DNA of 64,000 bases from Methylophilaceae bacterium (GTDB lineage: Bacteria; Pseudomonadota; Gammaproteobacteria; Burkholderiales; Methylophilaceae). The stretch spans positions 118,077 to 182,076 of the forward strand of contig DASXUG010000001.1 in the NCBI GenBank assembly GCA_036504995.1, given 5' to 3'. Below the pieces are notes generated by a model that searched no databases, was not told the origin of the DNA, and was given only the letters and a program-made list of their open reading frames with translations. Made by a program: the position numbers and the translations under genes. Below are positions 3,354 to 48,932 of this stretch, piece by piece; the first letter of the stretch is position 1; every line of letters starts with the position of its first letter.

Positions 3354-6300
3354 GTTGAGGCCTCTTGTTGACGGGCGGTTTGTCTTTGTTTGTTGTTCAA
3401 TAGAAGTTTGCTGAACTCGATAGCGGTCACAGGTTTGCTATACAAATAGCCTTGCGCTTCCGTGCAACCCATATTTCTTAAAAAGTTGGCTTGTGCTTCT
3501 GTCTCCACGCCTTCGGCAATCACGCTAAAACCTAAGCTGCTTGCCATTGCGTAAATGGCATTGGCGATGGCGGCATCATCTTGATCATCAGGTAAATCGC
3601 GTACAAATGACTGGTCGATTTTAATTTTATCAAGCGGTAGGCGTTTTAAGTTGGATAGTGATGAGTAGCCTGTCCCGAAGTCATCAATCGCTAAACTTAC
3701 GCCCATACTTTTTATGCGATCAAAAGTTTCAATCACAAATTGCGTATTTTGCATGACAGTACTCTCGGTAATCTCAAGCTCTAATATGGATGGATCGCAA
3801 TCTGTTTCAATGATTAAGCCATAAACCGTATCTGCAAAATTGCTGCGTAAAATTTGCACGCCTGATACATTCACTGACACGCGTTTAAAGTTGTAGCCTT
3901 GCGCTTTCCATTGGCCCGCATGCAATGCGGCTTGGCGTATCACCCACTCACCTATTTGCATAATTAAGCCTGTGTCTTCAGCCACAGGGATAAACTTGGC
4001 TGGAGAAACAATCCCCAACTCAGGGTGGTGCCAACGTAATAATGCTTCTGCACCAATAATATCGCCGCTGATTAAACAAACCTGAGGTTGGTAGTACACT
4101 TCAAACTGTTCTCGCTCTAAGGCGCGGCGAAGATGAGTTTCCATATTAAAACGTTCAAGCGCGTTTTCACTCAACTCGCTGGAGTAAAAACAGAAATTGT
4201 TTTTACCCGAGTTTTTAACTTGATACATGGCAATATCGGCCGCCTTGATCAGCCCATCTACTTCATTGCTGTCATTCGGGTAGACTGAAATGCCAACGCT
4301 AGCCCCAATGAAAATTTCTTTACCTTGGATAATGAATTCAGTTTGTATCGCATGGATAATTTTTTTTGCGACAATGGCTGCATCTTCAATTTCATCCAGA
4401 CGATCCATCACCACCATAAACTCATCACCGCCCAGACGTGCGACGACATCGCTGGTGCGAATCGATTGTTTAATGCGACGCGATACTTCTAGTAATAATT
4501 GGTCACCCAATTGATGGCCTAGTGAATCATTGACTGTTTTAAAGCGATCTAAGTCAATAAAGAGCACGGCGATTTTATAGCCTTTGCGCCCAGCGACTTT
4601 GATGGCTTGGTCGAGCAACTCGATGAGTAAACGTCTATTGGGTAAGCCTGTGAGGGCATCCTGATTGACCAATTGATGTAATTGTTTTTGCGATTGTACA
4701 ATTTCTGTAATATCGGCAAACACACCAACGTAATTGGCGACTTTCCCAAGATCATCTTTGACTACAGTTAGCGTTAGCCATTCTTGATAGGATTCGCCGT
4801 TTTTACGATAGTTGGCAACTTCGCCATGCCATTTCTCTTTAGTTCTAAGGCTTTCCCACACCTTATTATCCGCTGTTTGGAAAATCTTAGGGGTAAAGCC
4901 GAGTGCTTCCTCTTCGGTAAAGCCAGTGATCGCGGTAAAGCCTTGGTTAACCCCAATGACTTGTGCATTCACATCCAAAATCATGATGCCTTCAGTGGCA
5001 GAATCAAAAGCGATTTTGGCTTGTTGTAAGCGTTTTTCAGTCGACTGTCTTTGAATGGCCGCACTTAAGGCGCGGCTGATTGCCATCACCGCCCCCAGTT
5101 CCTGCGGGTAAAGCGGTTGTGATGACAGGCTGCGCTCTATCATCAGCGTTCCCCACAGCTTCATATTCACGAACAGGGGCATGATCAAGATTGATTGTAT
5201 ATTGTGCTTTTTTAAAAAGCGCTGCTCATTGAGTGGTAGCTCTTTAACCTCGCTAAAAATTGGGTTGCCTTGCTGTAAAGTGGCTAGCCAACGCTCACAA
5301 TCTTCTGCTTGATAATCTATGGTTTTGAGCGATTGTCCTAGTTTAGGTTGGCCAAGCCCCTGCCATTGATAAATGACTTCCCCTTTGATGGACTTTTGAT
5401 TGGCTTCTGAAGTGGCTTTGTTAGAAACACCACTGTGTATCGTCGAATTGATATGCGTTTTACCATGTTTAAATATGGAGCCACGGTTAAAGCGTGCGGC
5501 TAGGCATAGCTGTTCTAATACTTTATCCGCAATAGTGTGCCAATTTTCACTGGAGTGTAGTAACCAGTCACATGAAATCAGTGCGTCCAGCATCGCGCTG
5601 CGATTTTGCAAATGGCTTTCAGCTAACTTGCGCTCGGTGATGTCACGACTCAAGGTGACTAAACCTTCGCGGCTACCATCATCATGAAATAAGGGCACTT
5701 TCACAACATCAAATACTTTTGCCCCACCATGCGGAAGCGGGATGGTTTGTTCTTCGTGATACGGTTTCTCTTTTGCCCAAGCCTTTTCGTCAGACTGTTT
5801 AATTTGCTTAAAAGCTTCTTTTTGTGAGGGGTGGGCGAAGCTGGCAAGCTCACTATCTGTTCTATATTGATATTGATCGGTGGGGATCTGGAATAAGTCT
5901 AAGCCGCTTTGATTGGCTTCTAACCAGCGACCTTTATGATCCTTAAAGCAAATGAAATCTGGGCTAGCCTCAATTAAGCTGCGTAGCAATTTTTCTGTAC
6001 CGCGTAATTGGTATTCCGTCAGAACGCGGTCGGTGATGTCGTGCATATGCAAAACATAACCATGGGCTTGATGTGCTGTCGCAGGGGTGGTTGATGCGAA
6101 CACCTTCAATGTGCGTACGCTATCGCCAACAGAGTATTGTAGAGTAAAGTCTGAGCTCGATTGCTTTAATGCTGATATGACGCGCTTGTGTATAGAGGGC
6201 GAGAGCCTAGCTTTGCCCTCTAGTAATGCATGATGAGCCAGTGCAAATATCTCGCAAGCGTAATGATTTGCATAGTGGATATTAAGTTTATGATCGCAGG

Positions 6301-18450: not shown

Positions 18451-18535
18451 GCGAAAGTGGCGAAATTGGTAGACGCACTGGATTTAGGTTCCAGCGCCGC
18501 AAGGCGTGAGAGTTCGAGTCTCTCCTTTCGCACCA
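18451..18535 (+). tRNA. tRNA-Leu (anticodon TAG)
   Basis: Acceptor GCGAAAG/CTTTCGC. Anticodon stem CTGGA/TCCAG with loop TTTAGGT. Long variable arm. T-arm GAGAG-TTCGAGT-CTCTC. Encoded CCA. Confidence 0.92.
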
Positions 18536-24872: not shown

Positions 24873-24948
24873 GGGTGCTTAGCTCAGTTGGTAGAGCGTC
24901 GCCCTTACAAGGCGAATGTCAGCGGTTCGACCCCGTTAGCACCCACCA
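24873..24948 (+). tRNA. tRNA-Val (anticodon TAC)
   Basis: Acceptor GGGTGCT/AGCACCC. Anticodon stem TCGCC/GGCGA with loop CTTACAA. T-loop GGTTCGA. Encoded CCA. Confidence 0.92.
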
Positions 24949-25018: not shown

Positions 25019-25095
25019 GGAGCGGTAGTTCAGTTGGTTAGAATACCGGCCTGTCACGCCGGGGGTCGCGGGTTCGAGTCCCGTCCGCTCCGCCA
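25019..25095 (+). tRNA. tRNA-Asp (anticodon GTC)
   Basis: Acceptor GGAGCGG/CCGCTCC. Anticodon stem CCGGC/GCCGG with loop CTGTCAC. T-loop GGTTCGA. Encoded CCA. Confidence 0.92.
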
Positions 25096-37437: not shown

Positions 37438-37535
37438 AAAAGAGTGTTTATGCTACCACGCCAAAAACTGTAGTGGCATGTGACCGCCGCTTGGCCATGC
37501 AAAATATGTAAATTATCGTTGACAGTTTAAAATTA

Positions 37536-37587
37536 ATGGATTTAAAATGGATTCTTAATGTATTATTTATGGATTTTAAAATACCAT
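37536..37587 (+). promoter_or_regulatory. cluster of ATGGATT repeats, including the imperfect palindrome ATGGATTTTAAAATACCAT, upstream of the LuxR-type gene
   Basis: ATGGATT at 37536, 37547 and 37569. 15-mer ATGGATTTAAAATGG at 37536-37550. Near-palindrome at 37569-37587. Confidence 0.3.
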
Positions 37588-37742: not shown

Positions 37743-37970
37743 ATGTGTAACAGCCCATTAACGCCTGCATTACGAAAGTTAATGCATACATGCCAAATTT
37801 TAAAGACAACAGAAGCCAAAGTATTGGCTGCACACCTCAATAAATCACCCGCTACCGTACGTACTGAGTTTCAACGCATTATGACGCTGATGAATGTGAA
37901 TTGTCGTTATGCAGCACTAAAAACGGCTGAGGAAAATGGTTGGATAGAGGATGGTTCGCTTTATCATTAA
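37743..37970 (+). CDS. stand-alone LuxR/GerE-type helix-turn-helix transcription regulator
   Basis: 75 aa. LTPALRKLMH...TTEAKVLAAHLNKSPATVRTEFQRIMTLMNVNCRYAALKTAEENGWI fits the LuxR C-terminal HTH layout. AAGGAG Shine-Dalgarno sequence 6 nt upstream. Confidence 0.65.
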   Translation: MCNSPLTPALRKLMHTCQILKTTEAKVLAAHLNKSPATVRTEFQRIMTLMNVNCRYAALKTAEENGWIEDGSLYH

Positions 37971-37997
37971 TGCGCACTAAATGTATGCATTTGCAGT

Positions 37998-38012
37998 ATG
38001 GATTTTTAATGG
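37998..38012 (+). promoter_or_regulatory. second copy of the ATGGATTTnnAATGG motif, upstream of the 431-aa gene
   Basis: ATGGATTTTTAATGG matches ATGGATTTAAAATGG (37536-37550) at 13 of 15 positions. It lies 62 nt upstream of ATG 38074. Confidence 0.3.
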
Positions 38013-38073
38013 TATCTAACTTAATCTGAAGGTGTTGGGTATATCCCACATATAAACTATTAAGGAGAGAACC

Positions 38074-39369
38074 ATGGACGAACATCAGTCAAAAATCCCT
38101 TGTTGCCCAGAACTCATAGAGGACAATCATTGTGATATTTTCAATTTTACTCGGGTACTCACTTACCCGACCAATGTAGAGTCACGCAATGGGCAGCAAG
38201 TGAGTGTGGAGGTGATTCTACATTTTAAATTTTCACGTTGTACCTTAGGCCTTACGCTTGGCGATCCTGCGTACAGCACCACATTACTCCCTGGCGAAAA
38301 AGTGCGCTTGAGCACCACCGATAGGAGAAGTCGTTTTAGCTTTGATAGTGAGAGCACGTTAAGCTATCGCAGCGAGCAAATCTCTGAAGATCAGTATTTT
38401 ATGACGGCTGCGCAGAAATATATGGCAGACGGTTCTGCCGCCCAGTCAGGACATGCGAGCAGTACATCCGCGAGTAATTGGGATTTTCATGGAGACGCCA
38501 GTGGTAGTATTGGCATACTTTCATTAAGCGCAGATGCCAGCACCAACGCTAGTGGTCATCATAATAGCAGCTCGGTTGCTGATTATTTAAATCAACAAAG
38601 TACCCATATGCAAAGTGCGTCTGCACAAGCTGTTAGCGCTACGCATAAGGCGCACTCAGTTTCTATTGGTGAGGTCTCAAGCCGCACTCACATGCAGGGA
38701 GAGTCAGAAGATCACTATGAGGCATCATCGCGCGAGTTTAGTAATTTAAATAAATGCCACGCAGTGACTTATACCTTTTACCGAATTAATAAAAAACAGA
38801 AAGTTAAATTCGAGCTGCTGGCTATTGAAAAGCGTGTCCTTGATGACAATGCTCCTATTGGCGGTATTCTGCAAACACCCGCCACTAAGCCACTACCCAT
38901 TGCATTGGTGCCGCAAGATATCGCCGCAACTGCAGTGATCAAGCGTAGCACAGCGGCTGGTAATGTGGCAGGTGCAAATCTTGAATCCGCAGCCTCATTA
39001 GCCGCCACACCCAATTTGCTACGTAGCAATTTGTTAATTAATGCTGATTTTAAAACGCCTATCGATAATGCAATTCGAGAAAAAGCCCTTAACTTTGTGA
39101 GCGAGCAATTGGTCGCAAAAAATCTTATTGGTAAAGATGGCAAAGTGACCAAAGAGATTAAGCAAAGTGTTGAATTCGAGTCAGAGTTCTCTCTGCCAAC
39201 CCCAGGCGTCATCGTGAAAGGTTGTTTAGATGAGTGTGATGTTTGTGAGCCGCTACTCAAAGAGCGTATGCAGTTAGAAAACGATTTGCTACGCAAACAA
39301 ATCGAGTTGTTAGATAAGTCACAAGAGTATCGCTGCTGTACTGTCCCCGCAGTGGAGCCGTGCCCTTAG
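38074..39369 (+). CDS. hypothetical 431-aa protein, no family recognised (terminal Cys clusters, S/A/H-rich core, C-terminal coiled coil)
   Basis: Long ORF with a consensus AAGGAGA Shine-Dalgarno sequence 6 nt upstream. No signal peptide or TM segment seen. See findings. Confidence 0.75.
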   Translation: MDEHQSKIPCCPELIEDNHCDIFNFTRVLTYPTNVESRNGQQVSVEVILHFKFSRCTLGLTLGDPAYSTTLLPGEKVRLSTTDRRSRFSFDSESTLSYRSEQISEDQYFMTAAQKYMADGSAAQSGHASSTSASNWDFHGDASGSIGILSLSADASTNASGHHNSSSVADYLNQQSTHMQSASAQAVSATHKAHSVSIGEVSSRTHMQGESEDHYEASSREFSNLNKCHAVTYTFYRINKKQKVKFELLAIEKRVLDDNAPIGGILQTPATKPLPIALVPQDIAATAVIKRSTAAGNVAGANLESAASLAATPNLLRSNLLINADFKTPIDNAIREKALNFVSEQLVAKNLIGKDGKVTKEIKQSVEFESEFSLPTPGVIVKGCLDECDVCEPLLKERMQLENDLLRKQIELLDKSQEYRCCTVPAVEPCP

Positions 39370-39457: not shown

Positions 39458-39739
39458 ATGAACAATAAATTATGGTCATTCACTGTAGGTATAACACTGT
39501 GTATGATTTTAAGCTCACCTGTTTTTGGTAAAGGTGGCTCAGACGCCGCAGAAGGCAAAGTAGTGGGTGGCGACAATCCAGACAAGCTCACCTCAGATAT
39601 TGTGGACTCACATGAAGAGGTGCCACCACCTAGCCATAGCCAAATCAGCAGTTCGGATATTCAAGAACGTAAAGCCGTGCTGAGATGCAAAAAATTAAAG
39701 CCAGCGTTGCAGCAAAAGTGTTTGGATAATTTACCTTAA
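39458..39739 (+). CDS. small secreted protein, unknown function
   Basis: 93 aa. AAGGAG Shine-Dalgarno sequence. Signal peptide MNNKLWSFTVGITLCMILSSPVFG. Acidic middle, basic C-terminus with two Cys. Confidence 0.55.
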   Translation: MNNKLWSFTVGITLCMILSSPVFGKGGSDAAEGKVVGGDNPDKLTSDIVDSHEEVPPPSHSQISSSDIQERKAVLRCKKLKPALQQKCLDNLP

Positions 39740-48244: not shown

Positions 48245-48425
48245 TAATATTAGGGATAAAGGCATTAGTCCGAATGGACTATTGCTGGTGTGGAAACAGG
48301 TCGTTATTATGGCAGCCTACCAAGGTATACACTTATGGTATTGGTGCAAATGAATTTTTCGGTTGAGAACTTTCAAAGCTAGAGACTGCATTTGCAATAT
48401 TAATTTACTTATAAAAAAGGAAGCA

Positions 48426-48932
48426 ATGATGAACGTAGTTAAAACGTTAGCATTGGTAGGCGCCTTATTTGCAGCGCAATCTGCAATGGCAGGTACTTAC
48501 GATTTTGGCTTGATGGGGCCTCCAGATTCAAAGACAATTACTGCTACTTCTGATTCAATTTTTGTAGCTGATAGTGACACATTTACATTTAGTATTAATG
48601 CTGACGCTAATGTAGCTGGCAGCGCACCAAACGTACCTTTGGCCATTTCATGGTTTAAAGTAACAGGTGTTGCAGTTTGGAGTGTTGCGTTACTTGACTC
48701 AACCAATACACAAATTGGCGCAACAGACTACACTACAGATAACTTCTCATTCGCTAATCTTAGCGCTGGTGCTTACTCTTTGGTAGTTAAAACATCTGGT
48801 AATACAAATTACAGCGTAACTTTAACAACTGCGCCTGTTGCAACAGCAGTTCCAGAGCCAGAAGCTTACGCAATGATGTTAGCTGGTTTAGGTTTAGTAG
48901 GTTTTGCGGCACGTCGTAAATTCTCAGCTTAA
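48426..48932 (+). CDS. PEP-CTERM sorting-domain secreted protein
   Basis: Start moved to MMNVVKTLALVGALFAAQSAMA (signal peptide). C-terminal VPEPEAYAMMLAGLGLVGFAARRK matches PEP motif + TM + basic tail. Confidence 0.8.
   Translation: MMNVVKTLALVGALFAAQSAMAGTYDFGLMGPPDSKTITATSDSIFVADSDTFTFSINADANVAGSAPNVPLAISWFKVTGVAVWSVALLDSTNTQIGATDYTTDNFSFANLSAGAYSLVVKTSGNTNYSVTLTTAPVATAVPEPEAYAMMLAGLGLVGFAARRKFSA

Follow-up and report, generated by a model that had tools for sequence, protein, structure and literature searches.

Gene A and its immediate surroundings

The window, i.e. the complete stretch of 64,000 nucleotides that was analysed, contains an uninterrupted reading frame at 38074..39369 (stop codon included), here designated gene A; all coordinates refer to the forward (+) strand. 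Gene A codes for a protein of 431 amino acids from an unannotated family, and its delineation is based on the single open frame (stop codons are abundant on the opposite strand), homologues, the dN/dS ratio and an AlphaFold model. A Shine-Dalgarno sequence, AAGGAG, was read from the sequence 6 nt 5′ of the ATG start codon (38062..38067). The dN/dS ratio of gene A was found to be 0.03–0.05 at dS values of 0.5–1.7. This corresponds to strong purifying selection and shows that A is a real gene and not a chance open reading frame.

Cysteine accounts for 2.55% of the residues of protein A. The protein has neither a signal peptide nor a transmembrane helix (the highest Kyte-Doolittle score of a 19-mer is 1.03) and is thus made in the cytoplasm. 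The preliminary description of this DNA had already reported the lack of a transmembrane helix and of a catalytic motif, in line with this score and with the absence of any Pfam or NCBIfam domain match. The motifs quoted in it were all found in the translation, and most are conserved in the family.

Directly upstream of the gene module to which A belongs lies c19 (37743..37970), an HTH-like open reading frame of 75 amino acids with a weak GerE/LuxR-type match (GerE, E-value 0.07). Its dN/dS ratio is 0.06–0.15, and an AAGGAG context is also present 5′ of this frame. The frame was found in the window and in the loci L004, L005, L006, L011, L089 and L091, Methylophilaceae relatives conserving it upstream of the module. 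A GerE-domain gene was also observed upstream of an A homologue with 41% identity. In L005, L006 and L011, A is followed mainly by genes with housekeeping functions.

The 24-nt motif TAAATGTATGCATTTGCAGTATGG (37978..38001) is located between c19 and gene A. It is unique in the window, with 0 copies expected by chance, and occurs twice in L004, where the copies flank the partner gene B′. Compared to L004, precisely the 2.3 kb enclosed by these two copies is missing from the window. Judging from this sequence comparison, B′ was likely deleted in the window lineage by recombination at a repeat of 27 nt, while gene A was kept, and the motif is likely the scar of this deletion. The motif is also a candidate operator. 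Its reading as a sigma-54 promoter was rejected upon inspection by eye, as the GG/GC spacing is absent. Within the window, none of B′, the DUF6345 gene, c1 and c2 (see below) was found. The preliminary description had missed that a partner gene conserved elsewhere is lost here.

Distribution of the family and database comparison

More than 2,100 homologues were found in at least 10 phyla, carried by ~360 reference species and represented by thousands of metagenomic sequences, and every copy is labelled "hypothetical". Between Bacteroidota and Proteobacteria the identity of A is ~70%. In a genome scan with an alignment of 16 sequences, the distribution across phyla is patchy, and the decay of partner genes is repeated, a combination typical of accessory or conflict genes.

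Comparison of A with Pfam yielded best E-values of 0.12–0.16, under the gathering score. No matches were obtained in NCBIfam, PADLOC or PHROGs, nor among PDB sequences, either with the single sequence or with a profile. A profile of 69 sequences matched no named family, and 35 members scanned singly gave nothing consistent. A description of the A family was likewise not found in the literature on DUF6345, DUF1360, gasdermin-like and clostripain proteins and the family descriptors. The A module is missing from the PADLOC models, and its carriage by phages, plasmids or IMG/VR viruses was not detected.

Predicted structure of protein A

The AlphaFold model of A reached a pTM of 0.70, with 188 residues at a pLDDT of at least 90. 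It consists of an elongated beta sheet with very long strands (residues 20–36, 42–71, 229–256 and 368–389). Residues 105–193 are modelled as a helix, a disordered loop and a second helix inserted between long strands, so that the Ser/Ala/His-rich stretch formerly taken for the core of the protein is an insert and not the core. Seven histidines fall within residues 105–195; these insert histidines are not conserved across the family. Residues 120–195 contain 21.7% serine, 10.7% glycine and 12% alanine. The Ser/Gly/Ala-rich loop within them (residues 128–164, 38455..38565) has a pLDDT below 50, is constant in length across the family, displays a conserved amphipathic-beta alternation and is flanked by the aromatic positions W136 and H/Y/F163. 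Its beta hydrophobic moment is 1.0–1.5. The alternation corresponds to z = 1.71 compared to shuffled sequences (p < 0.05 in 43% of sequences); the linker of A and the helices on either side of the loop scored ~0, and a genuine amphipathic strand scored 2.0. Taken together, the constant length, aromatic flanks, beta moment and alternation make the loop a candidate insertion hairpin.

The most conserved core block comprises residues 196–256 (38659..38841) and reads SVSIGEV...EGESED...N-x-N-x-C-H-A-V-T-Y, together with the long strand 229–256 (pLDDT 90–97). The positions S197, V201, E216, R220, N224, N226, H229 and F235 are nearly invariant. The subsequent linker (residues 263–330, 38860..39063) is disordered in the model (pLDDT 43–52), variable in length and shows the lowest conservation (0.31–0.42). 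In the model, the C-terminal helical/hairpin domain ends in an amphipathic helix of 28 residues (393–420, pLDDT 84–94) that is followed by the vicinal cysteines C421 and C422 (39250..39339). The heptad-like C-terminus noted earlier corresponds to this predicted helix. Conserved residues of the region are L401, N403 (nearly invariant), L406, I410, L413, Y419 and R420.

A Foldseek search of the A model against the PDB yielded nothing significant. The top match, the pleurotolysin pore 4v2t, is sub-threshold with an E-value of 0.08, a probability of 0.02 and a TM score of 0.07. Beta-pore formers, namely the pleurotolysin pore, monalysin, NetF, Tpp80Aa1, leukocidin and the bacterial gasdermin pore, make up about one quarter of the 50 best PDB matches below threshold, which is a likeness of shape only. 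The sole significant structural match (Foldseek/BFVD, E-value 2.3e-15, probability 1.00) is A0A5K0U6Q4 of the giant virus Yasminevirus sp. GU-2018. This protein shares 29% identity with A in 286 aligned columns and is truly homologous to it, but differs from it in having 642 amino acids and extra regions; it is uncharacterised as well.

Based on these results, A represents a large unannotated family whose fold matches no characterised structure. The preliminary description, which could name no family, had proposed a survey of homologues and of their cysteines as well as a search by AlphaFold and Foldseek, and had regarded a match to a known family, a lack of homologues with conserved cysteines or a frame that is not translated as evidence against its reading. 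Homologues with conserved cysteines were found, while Pfam, NCBIfam, PADLOC, PHROGs, PDB sequences and the Foldseek search of the PDB provided no family match; none of the three kinds of counter-evidence was encountered.

Conserved cysteines

Ten of the eleven cysteines of A are conserved at 84–96% across the family. The N-terminal P-C-C-P motif (residues 9–12, 38098..38109) contributes C10 (96%) and C11 (85%), followed by C20 and C56 (84% each). C228 (89%) is part of the N-x-N-x-C-H block, in which N224, N226 and H229 are nearly invariant. The C-x3-C-x2-C motif at the end of the beta hairpin 368–389 (39223..39246) lies within GCLDxCxVCEP and contains C384 (86%), C388 (95%) and C391 (87%), and the RCC motif adds C421 (95%) and C422 (91%). 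C430 is conserved in 5% of homologues only. The CC-x7-C cluster described earlier is therefore not a feature of the family, and of the ten terminal cysteines pointed out at the time, all except C430 are conserved. For the CC-x8-C cluster, the conservation of both the CC pair and C20 was borne out, but C20 co-varies with C56 and not with the N-terminal CC.

Losses of cysteines in the family are paired (C11/C384, C20/C56 and C228/C391), and C11 and C384 were lost jointly in five homologues. In P0123, six cysteines are gone and C10, C388, C421 and C422 are retained, whereas the subfamily of P0182 and P0186 has lost all conserved cysteines. The covarying pairs bridge the termini and the core, which does not fully agree with the mirrored terminal clusters assumed in the preliminary description. 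Based on this pairwise covariation, the cysteines look like an intramolecular staple by which the N-terminal peptide and the core are joined to the hairpin and tail at the C-terminus, rather than like two independent terminal metal sites.

Partners of A

Gene A belongs to a module that has spread horizontally and in which it is the constant element. The module further includes B or B′ and often c1 and c2; a gene for a clostripain-type protease or a GerE-type regulator is occasionally present. B and B′ are two unannotated proteins of ~700–760 amino acids, one of which adjoins A in 51 of 69 well-flanked loci (74%); the pairing holds down to 28–41% identity of A. In P0191 and P0401, the N-terminal domain of B is fused to A (E-value 1e-24), and a domain of ~110 amino acids is common to B and long A homologues. 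A LecB-type (PA-IIL) lectin was considered for this domain because of its D-x-D-[FY]-N-D-L motif and was rejected after neither a Pfam match at E ≤ 10 nor a LecB PDB chain was obtained. Searches with B and B′ in Pfam, NCBIfam, PADLOC, PHROGs and the PDB sequences were empty. The AlphaFold model of B (pLDDT 81.5) is a chain of beta-sandwich domains. Foldseek returned generic multi-beta-sandwich proteins at TM scores of at most 0.16, with an S-layer protein among the weak neighbours, and no function follows from matches of this kind.

The small c1 protein (~105 amino acids, three transmembrane segments, DUF1360-like) is present in 47 loci, and c2, a CxC protein of 86 amino acids, is often part of the module. 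Conserved cysteine motifs were observed in every module member. A Peptidase_C11 (clostripain-type) gene neighbours A in five of 97 loci from two phyla, and a DUF6345 protein in one further locus (L004), so that a protease counted in this way adjoins A in ~6% of the loci. The protease reading of the DUF6345 protein, inferred from its dyad-like motif HSGHG...STC alone, is doubtful, as the protein showed no similarity to the C11 neighbour or to PDB chains. Neither the C11 nor the DUF6345 gene occurs in the window. Two further groups of neighbours were discarded: cluster c15 consists of antisense frames in high-GC genomes, and the supposed proteins of ~655 amino acids downstream of A in L069 and L076 turned out to be spurious frames rich in Arg, Gly and Pro.

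Comparison with known systems

Like the aerolysin/ETX-MTX2-type toxins (monalysin, Tpp80Aa1, NetF), A is elongated, has very long beta strands and carries in its sheet an amphipathic, Ser/Thr/Gly-rich, length-conserved hairpin candidate, a resemblance that is not proof of insertion. However, matches to these toxins are not significant (E-values of 0.29–1.7; monalysin 0.29, Tpp80Aa1 1.1; TM scores of at most 0.13) and a Pfam match is lacking. A also differs from them in having no signal peptide, a candidate insert flanked by two long polar helices, what appears to be a cysteine staple, a C-terminal helical domain and an unusual degree of conservation.

In its layout, A resembles an autoinhibited effector of the kind found among gasdermins and other protease-gated latent pore formers (bGSDM, Pepco, EACC1): its beta domain at the N-terminus is connected by a variable, disordered linker to a C-terminal domain that packs back onto it. 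Clan-CD protease genes adjoin A in some loci. Bacterial gasdermins have a size of ~250 amino acids and are encoded next to a caspase-like or other protease, which removes an inhibitory C-terminal segment. Compared to the gasdermin pore 9a84_A, A yielded an E-value of 1.6, a probability of 0.01 and a TM score of 0.09, and there was no Pfam match. Pepco and EACC1 have ~115 amino acids and lie beside a sensor-fused protease (PMC12642450), whereas A has 431 amino acids and its usual neighbour, B or B′, is a non-protease beta-sandwich protein.

The gene logic, but not the sequence or fold, of the A module resembles that of pore-forming colicin operons: large proteins without signal peptide are combined with the small c1, domains are exchanged between A and B, and the spread of the module is patchy and horizontal. 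Colicin-type operons encode a toxin without signal peptide, which is released by lysis, and a small multi-transmembrane immunity protein; the colicin pore domains are helical. Unlike colicins, the A module is not plasmid-borne. A relationship to MACPF/CDC proteins, in whose fold two helical clusters refold into hairpins, is not indicated by the sub-threshold pleurotolysin match or by Pfam, in which no MACPF match was found. Radical SAM enzymes have a TIM-barrel domain and a CxxxCxxC motif near the N-terminus; in A, the C-x3-C-x2-C motif is found at residues 384–391, at the end of the C-terminal hairpin, and PF04055 was not matched. HK97-type capsid proteins and encapsulins were absent from the significant Foldseek matches of A (PDB, BFVD), and a PHROG match was not obtained.

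Interpretation

We tentatively propose, as a reading that may well not hold, that A oligomerises and inserts into membranes as a beta-protein, remains latent as long as its cysteine network holds it shut, and works in the manner of beta-pore-forming toxins or effectors. The loop 128–164 would be the hairpin entering the membrane, while the cysteine network and the C-terminal domain would keep A soluble until it is released by a redox change, proteolysis of the linker or binding of a partner. B or B′ would supply targeting or scaffolding, and c1 may confer immunity, serve as an anchor or mediate release. In the window lineage, A would persist alone with the small regulator c19 after deletion of B′. 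This reading draws on the fold without known counterpart, the covarying cysteines, the candidate hairpin and the likeness in shape to beta-pore formers. It also draws on the pairing and fusion of A with B, the three-transmembrane c1, the C11 neighbours in two phyla and the patchy spread with partner decay. A precedent is provided by prokaryotic pore formers that are latent and gated by proteases (PMC12642450). Several findings count against a pore-forming A. A shows no significant similarity, in structure or in sequence, to any family of pore formers, protease neighbours are confined to a minority of loci (five C11 and one DUF6345), and neither the PADLOC models nor phages, plasmids and IMG/VR contain the module. 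Purifying selection as strong and cross-phylum identity as high as in A are not usual in toxins or immune effectors. The window lineage has kept A in the absence of B′, c1 and c2, which is hard to reconcile with a toxin that depends on partners. In addition, an amphipathic beta loop could equally well mediate strand exchange between the subunits of an assembly. A second reading, which we regard as only slightly less likely than the first, is built on such an assembly: A would self-assemble with B into a lattice, cage or filament that is located inside the cell or associated with it, its cysteines cross-linking or locking subunits, the loop and the C-terminal helix forming contacts and c1 acting as membrane anchor. 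Constraint along the whole sequence and cross-phylum identity as observed here are within the range of shell or gas-vesicle proteins. The absence of a catalytic motif or domain, the elongated sheet with a coiled-coil-like helix, the beta-sandwich chain of B with its weak S-layer neighbour, the cysteine motifs throughout the module and the A–B domain fusion point in the same direction. On the other hand, A has no fold match to capsid, encapsulin, S-layer or shell proteins, conserved cargo or biogenesis genes were not found nearby, and the sparse, patchy spread with frequent partner loss and A alone is odd for an obligate two-component structure.

The cysteines could also coordinate Zn, Fe-S or Cu, as the preliminary description had suggested, making A a metal-binding or thiol redox-sensing protein that functions as a sensor or carrier instead of a membrane effector. 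Ten conserved cysteines in a cytoplasmic protein, the C-x3-C-x2-C motif, the His-rich insert and the persistence of the group C10, C388, C421 and C422 even where the other six are lost, as in P0123, would fit this. Yet cysteines are lost by twos in otherwise conserved proteins, and altogether in P0182 and P0186, a pattern better explained by structural pairs than by an essential metal centre. Since there is also no match to radical SAM, ferredoxin or other metal domains and the insert histidines vary, we consider a metal or redox function improbable. That gene A is a decaying, functionless remnant in the window genome is hardly credible: the partners are indeed missing from the window and have decayed in other genomes too, but A is intact with 431 codons' worth of protein, all ten conserved cysteines and a strong Shine-Dalgarno sequence, and three lineages without B′ keep it at a dN/dS of 0.03–0.05 (dS up to 1.7).

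In a broader form, the proposal is that A, B/B′, c1 and c2 constitute an unrecognised cross-phylum system on a new fold, being either a cysteine-latched pore-forming or membrane-remodelling class or a self-assembling intracellular structure. Horizontal transfer would have carried it into a giant virus as well as into at least 10 bacterial phyla. A would also be able to act alone. We judge this proposal to fall slightly short of evenly balanced.

Significance

The family is unannotated, as are its large partners B and B′, and A marks a new multi-gene system. Cultured carriers of A include Ferruginibacter paludis CECT 8366, Niabella aurantiaca DSM 17617, Terrimonas pollutisoli, Thiomonas delicata DSM 16361, Rhodanobacter spathiphylli B39, Anaerolinea thermolimosa IMO-1, Methylomonas defluvii and Methylomonas albis, and A is thus directly testable. 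The naturally partner-less A of the window lineage offers a comparison that separates autonomous from partner-dependent function. Should A prove to be a pore-forming or self-assembling protein of a new kind, it would represent a new structural class for bacterial cell biology or conflict systems, and engineering would also gain a compact module that can be switched by redox state or by a protease.

Gene A and its genomic surroundings

Gene A is located at window positions 38074–39369 (+) as a single open frame encoding 431 aa, with the opposite strand full of stop codons and an AAGGAG Shine-Dalgarno sequence 6 nt upstream of the start. Cysteine accounts for 2.55% of the residues. All motifs quoted in the preliminary description were found in the translation, and a maximum Kyte-Doolittle 19-mer value of 1.03 is in line with its statement that a transmembrane helix is lacking. 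A is a real conserved protein and is made in the cytoplasm, featuring neither a signal peptide nor a transmembrane helix.

The flanking genes, named by eye and from Pfam labels of syntenic relatives, are housekeeping genes: tgt, yajC, secDF, a CNNM protein gene, clpS, clpA and a GST gene upstream, and MurU-like and AmgK-like genes, lptD, surA, pdxA, rsmA and adk downstream. The sole Rfam/ARAGORN matches in the window are tRNA-Leu(tag) (18451–18535), tRNA-Val(tac) (24873–24948) and tRNA-Asp(gtc) (25019–25095). None of them is close to A, so the island lacks a tRNA-linked integration signature. Further downstream, a 189-aa ORF (48363–48932) ends in VPEPEAYAMMLAGLGLVGFAARRKFSA, a putative PEP-CTERM-type sorting signal, which suggests an exosortase system in the source organism.

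Family and distribution

A alone yielded no match in Pfam, NCBIfam, PADLOC, PHROGs or PDB sequences, and the same five libraries were empty for a 69-sequence profile and for 35 members searched individually. The earlier failure to name a family and the claim of novelty both hold against every library searched here. The survey of homologues that had been proposed returned more than 2,100 in 90% clusters (463 representatives at 50% identity); wherever a source gives a name, it is 'hypothetical protein'. Scanning one genome per species, about 360 carriers were found among 185,579 species. These include Methylophilaceae, Methylomonas, Thiomonas, Ideonella and Rhodanobacter, as well as many Chitinophagaceae, Chloroflexota, Actinomycetota and Acidobacteriota; more distant members come from Nitrospira, Zixibacteria and Ignavibacteria-type bins. 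A was not found in 50,697 phage genomes, 72,556 plasmids or IMG/VR. The only archaeal locus (L083, 52% identity) lies on a 9.9-kb contig of a Methanotrichaceae MAG with uninformative neighbours, and its placement could be a binning error or contamination.

Conservation and cysteine pairs

In a 69-sequence alignment reaching down to ~28% identity, residues 61–100, 201–240 and 381–420 are the best conserved. The terminal cysteines had been described as a set of ten. Ten of the 11 cysteines of A are 84–96% conserved, and all ten are retained in 130 of 150 near-full-length homologues; C430, found in 5%, falls outside the set. Certain cysteines are lost together: C11 and C384 in P0121, P0175, P0190, P0191 and P0202, C20 and C56 in P0123, P0152, P0161, P0165 and P0173, and C228 and C391 in P0123, P0124, P0165 and P0173. 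C10, C388, C421 and C422 are kept as a group, for example in P0123, and the P0182/P0186 subfamily has lost essentially all cysteines. Such correlated losses, with roughly 4–5 independent events behind each pair, are what would be expected if the cysteines work in pairs, as disulfides or as joint ligands. They provide good but not conclusive evidence that the pairs link the N-terminal peptide and the core to each other and to the C-terminal hairpin and tail.

Predicted structure

An AlphaFold2 model of A, based on the 69-sequence alignment, reached a pTM of 0.70, with pLDDT values of at least 90 for 188 residues. It features very long strands (residues 20–36, 42–71, 229–256 and 368–389), helices 105–125 and 165–193 on either side of a low-confidence loop (127–155), a disordered and poorly conserved linker (265–319), two helices (332–348 and 360–366) and a terminal helix (393–420). 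The proposed structure comparison gave a confident core and, in a Foldseek search of the PDB, no significant match (best E 0.08, probabilities ≤ 0.04, TM ≤ 0.13). Of the 50 best PDB matches below threshold, roughly one in four is a beta-pore former in the pore state (pleurotolysin, monalysin, NetF, Tpp80Aa1, leukocidin and a bacterial gasdermin pore); this is read here as no more than a common 'very long hairpin' shape. A BFVD search gave one significant match, a 642-aa protein of Yasminevirus (E 2.3e-15, 29% identity) that is itself uncharacterised; it is a homologue of A and carries no annotation. Family and fold are new.

The stretch previously described as low complexity is indeed rich in Ser, Ala and Gly (21.7%, 12% and 10.7% of residues 120–195 across the family), but its length is constant while the sequence drifts, and it shows amphipathic-beta alternation. 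It is bracketed by a conserved aromatic position (W136) and a Y/F/H position (163), with a short hydrophobic patch at the centre. In the window protein, residues 131–160 have a beta-type hydrophobic moment of 1.0–1.5 and a low alpha-type moment. Scored against composition-matched shuffles, loop 128–164 gave a median alternation z of 1.71 (p < 0.05 in 43% of 35 sequences), close to the value for amphipathic strand 42–71 (z 2.0), which is predicted with confidence; z was 0–0.5 for the helices on either side, for the linker and for the C-terminal helix. As the 35 sequences are non-independent, the test supports the amphipathic-beta character of the loop but does not settle it.

A showed no membership of the gasdermin, aerolysin/ETX-MTX2, MACPF/CDC, radical SAM, Pepco/EACC1 or HK97/encapsulin families. 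Pepco and EACC1 proteins (~115 aa; PMC12642450) are unrelated to it. The only aerolysin-like feature is the candidate amphipathic Ser/Gly-rich hairpin, a resemblance in possible working and no proof of membership. With the corrections to the cysteine set and the loop, the initial observation is confirmed.

Partner genes

ORFs were clustered in 83 loci, followed by a profile HMM search of 97 loci. Two large unannotated partners were found: B (~700–760 aa, 55 loci) and B′ (~711–760 aa with an internal domain duplication, 7 loci), without detectable relationship to each other. Smaller partners are c1 (~105 aa, three hydrophobic segments, an invariant DCFYC and a weak DUF1360 match; 47 loci) and c2 (~86 aa, N-terminal MCNCG or MSCCG; 48 loci). 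A Peptidase_C11 (clostripain-type) protein occurs in 5 loci of Chloroflexota and Pseudomonadota, and c19, a 75-aa HTH-like ORF, in the Methylophilaceae group.

B or B′ is present in 51 of the 69 loci (74%) with at least 3 kb on each side of A. The association extends to distant members: a 41%-identical A is preceded by a GerE-domain gene and followed after 13 nt by a B-like 760-aa gene, and members of only ~28–31% identity adjoin an unmistakable B (E 2e-134), an unmistakable B′ (E 2e-176) or a 689-aa protein that resembles B more remotely. In addition, residues 1–110 of the long homologues P0191 and P0401 form a domain 44% identical (E 1e-24) to the N-terminus of B (residues 1–113 of L095 8401–10470), a fusion that ties A to B independently. 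The A-B/B′ module is conserved. A LecB-type lectin was considered for the fused domain and rejected; the D-x-D-[FY]-N-D-L motif is suggestive but has no Pfam or PDB support.

In its AlphaFold model (pLDDT 81.5), B consists of beta-sandwich domains arranged in a chain. Eleven of its cysteines are invariant, as are many Trp residues. Its structural neighbours are generic (TM ≤ 0.16: alpha-2-macroglobulin, S-layer protein, complement C3/C5, arrestins). Methylomonas defluvii carries B broken into fragments of 158 and 108 aa (L022 7339–8141) beside an intact A, and Methylomonas albis (L001) has A and lacks B wholly; B decay is repeated and independent while A survives.

Two neighbours with protease-like motifs were also noted. 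A DUF6345 protein (L004 7355–8956) carries YHSGHG and, ~45 aa later, FWSTCYS, resembling the His-Gly / x-Cys dyad of clan CD (caspase/gingipain/clostripain-type); sequence searches gave no support for a protease, and it is the sole such neighbour found among the loci. In three Methylotenera-like loci (L005 7868–8251, L006 and L011), a ~125-aa zincin-like protein with GHELTHVSQ (HExxH) is encoded second downstream of A, after a YjbQ-like gene, and is probably unrelated to the module.

Loss of the partner in the window lineage

In the genome scan the closest match is L004, an uncultured Methylophilaceae MAG (87% identical), where the genes run GST, c19, B′, A, DUF6345 gene, MurU/AmgK. The window reads GST, c19, A, 93-aa ORF, MurU/AmgK and lacks exactly the 2.3 kb that holds B′ in L004. 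There, copies of a ~27-nt motif (3581–3601 and 5907–5927) bracket the B′ segment; the window keeps one copy (37978–38001; 24–27 nt, TAAATGTATGCATTTGCAGTATGG(AT)), its single occurrence, which fits B′ deletion by repeat recombination. The motif is likely the recombination site and may also be a candidate operator for the c19 protein, or a shared operator. B, B′, C11, c1 and c2 were found nowhere in the 64-kb window, and its two nearest relatives (95% and 90% identical) have the same B′-less layout. The window lineage has lost the usual partner of A.

In this trio, dN/dS is 0.03–0.05 for A (dS 0.48–1.67), indicating that selection preserves A even though its usual neighbour is gone; either its function is autonomous or its partners work from other sites in the genome. 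For c19 (37743–37970, +), dN/dS is 0.06–0.15, and the gene is conserved ahead of the module in every Methylophilaceae relative. It resembles GerE/LuxR-type HTH proteins weakly (Pfam E 0.07) and has its own near-consensus sigma-70-like promoter (37519–37548, TTGACA-18-TAAAAT). The 93-aa ORF (39458–39739) sits where L004 has the 533-aa DUF6345 gene. It has a signal-peptide-like N-terminus (MNNKLWSFTVGITLCMILSSPVFG) and no family match. Of the two nearest relatives, the 90%-identical one (L091) has this ORF and the 95%-identical one (L089) lacks it.

Possible function

The favoured, though tentative, reading is that A might be a latent beta-pore-forming or membrane-inserting protein; protease-gated latent pore formers are known in prokaryotes (PMC12642450). 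Loop 128–164 would then be the insertion hairpin, and the cysteine network and C-terminal domain would form a latch that opens on a redox change, on cleavage in the linker or on binding of a partner. Targeting or scaffolding would fall to B/B′, and c1 would serve as immunity, anchor or release factor. However, A does not significantly resemble any pore former, a protease neighbour occurs in just ~6% of loci, and the module is missing from defence-system models. Its conservation is also stronger than is usual in toxins or effectors, and it survives without partners.

That strong constraint would suit a self-assembling structural lattice or cage of A and B, as would the lack of catalytic motifs in A, the Cys-marked partners and the beta-sandwich nature of B, a rival that we regard as only slightly less likely. 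A metal, Fe-S or redox protein is unlikely, given that the cysteines are lost pairwise and that a cysteine-free subfamily exists. Selection on A excludes a decaying remnant almost entirely. The leftover probability goes to explanations not yet imagined.

Taken together, neither the family of A nor its fold nor its four-gene module has been characterised, and A represents well-defined, testable conserved 'dark matter' rather than a solved mechanism.
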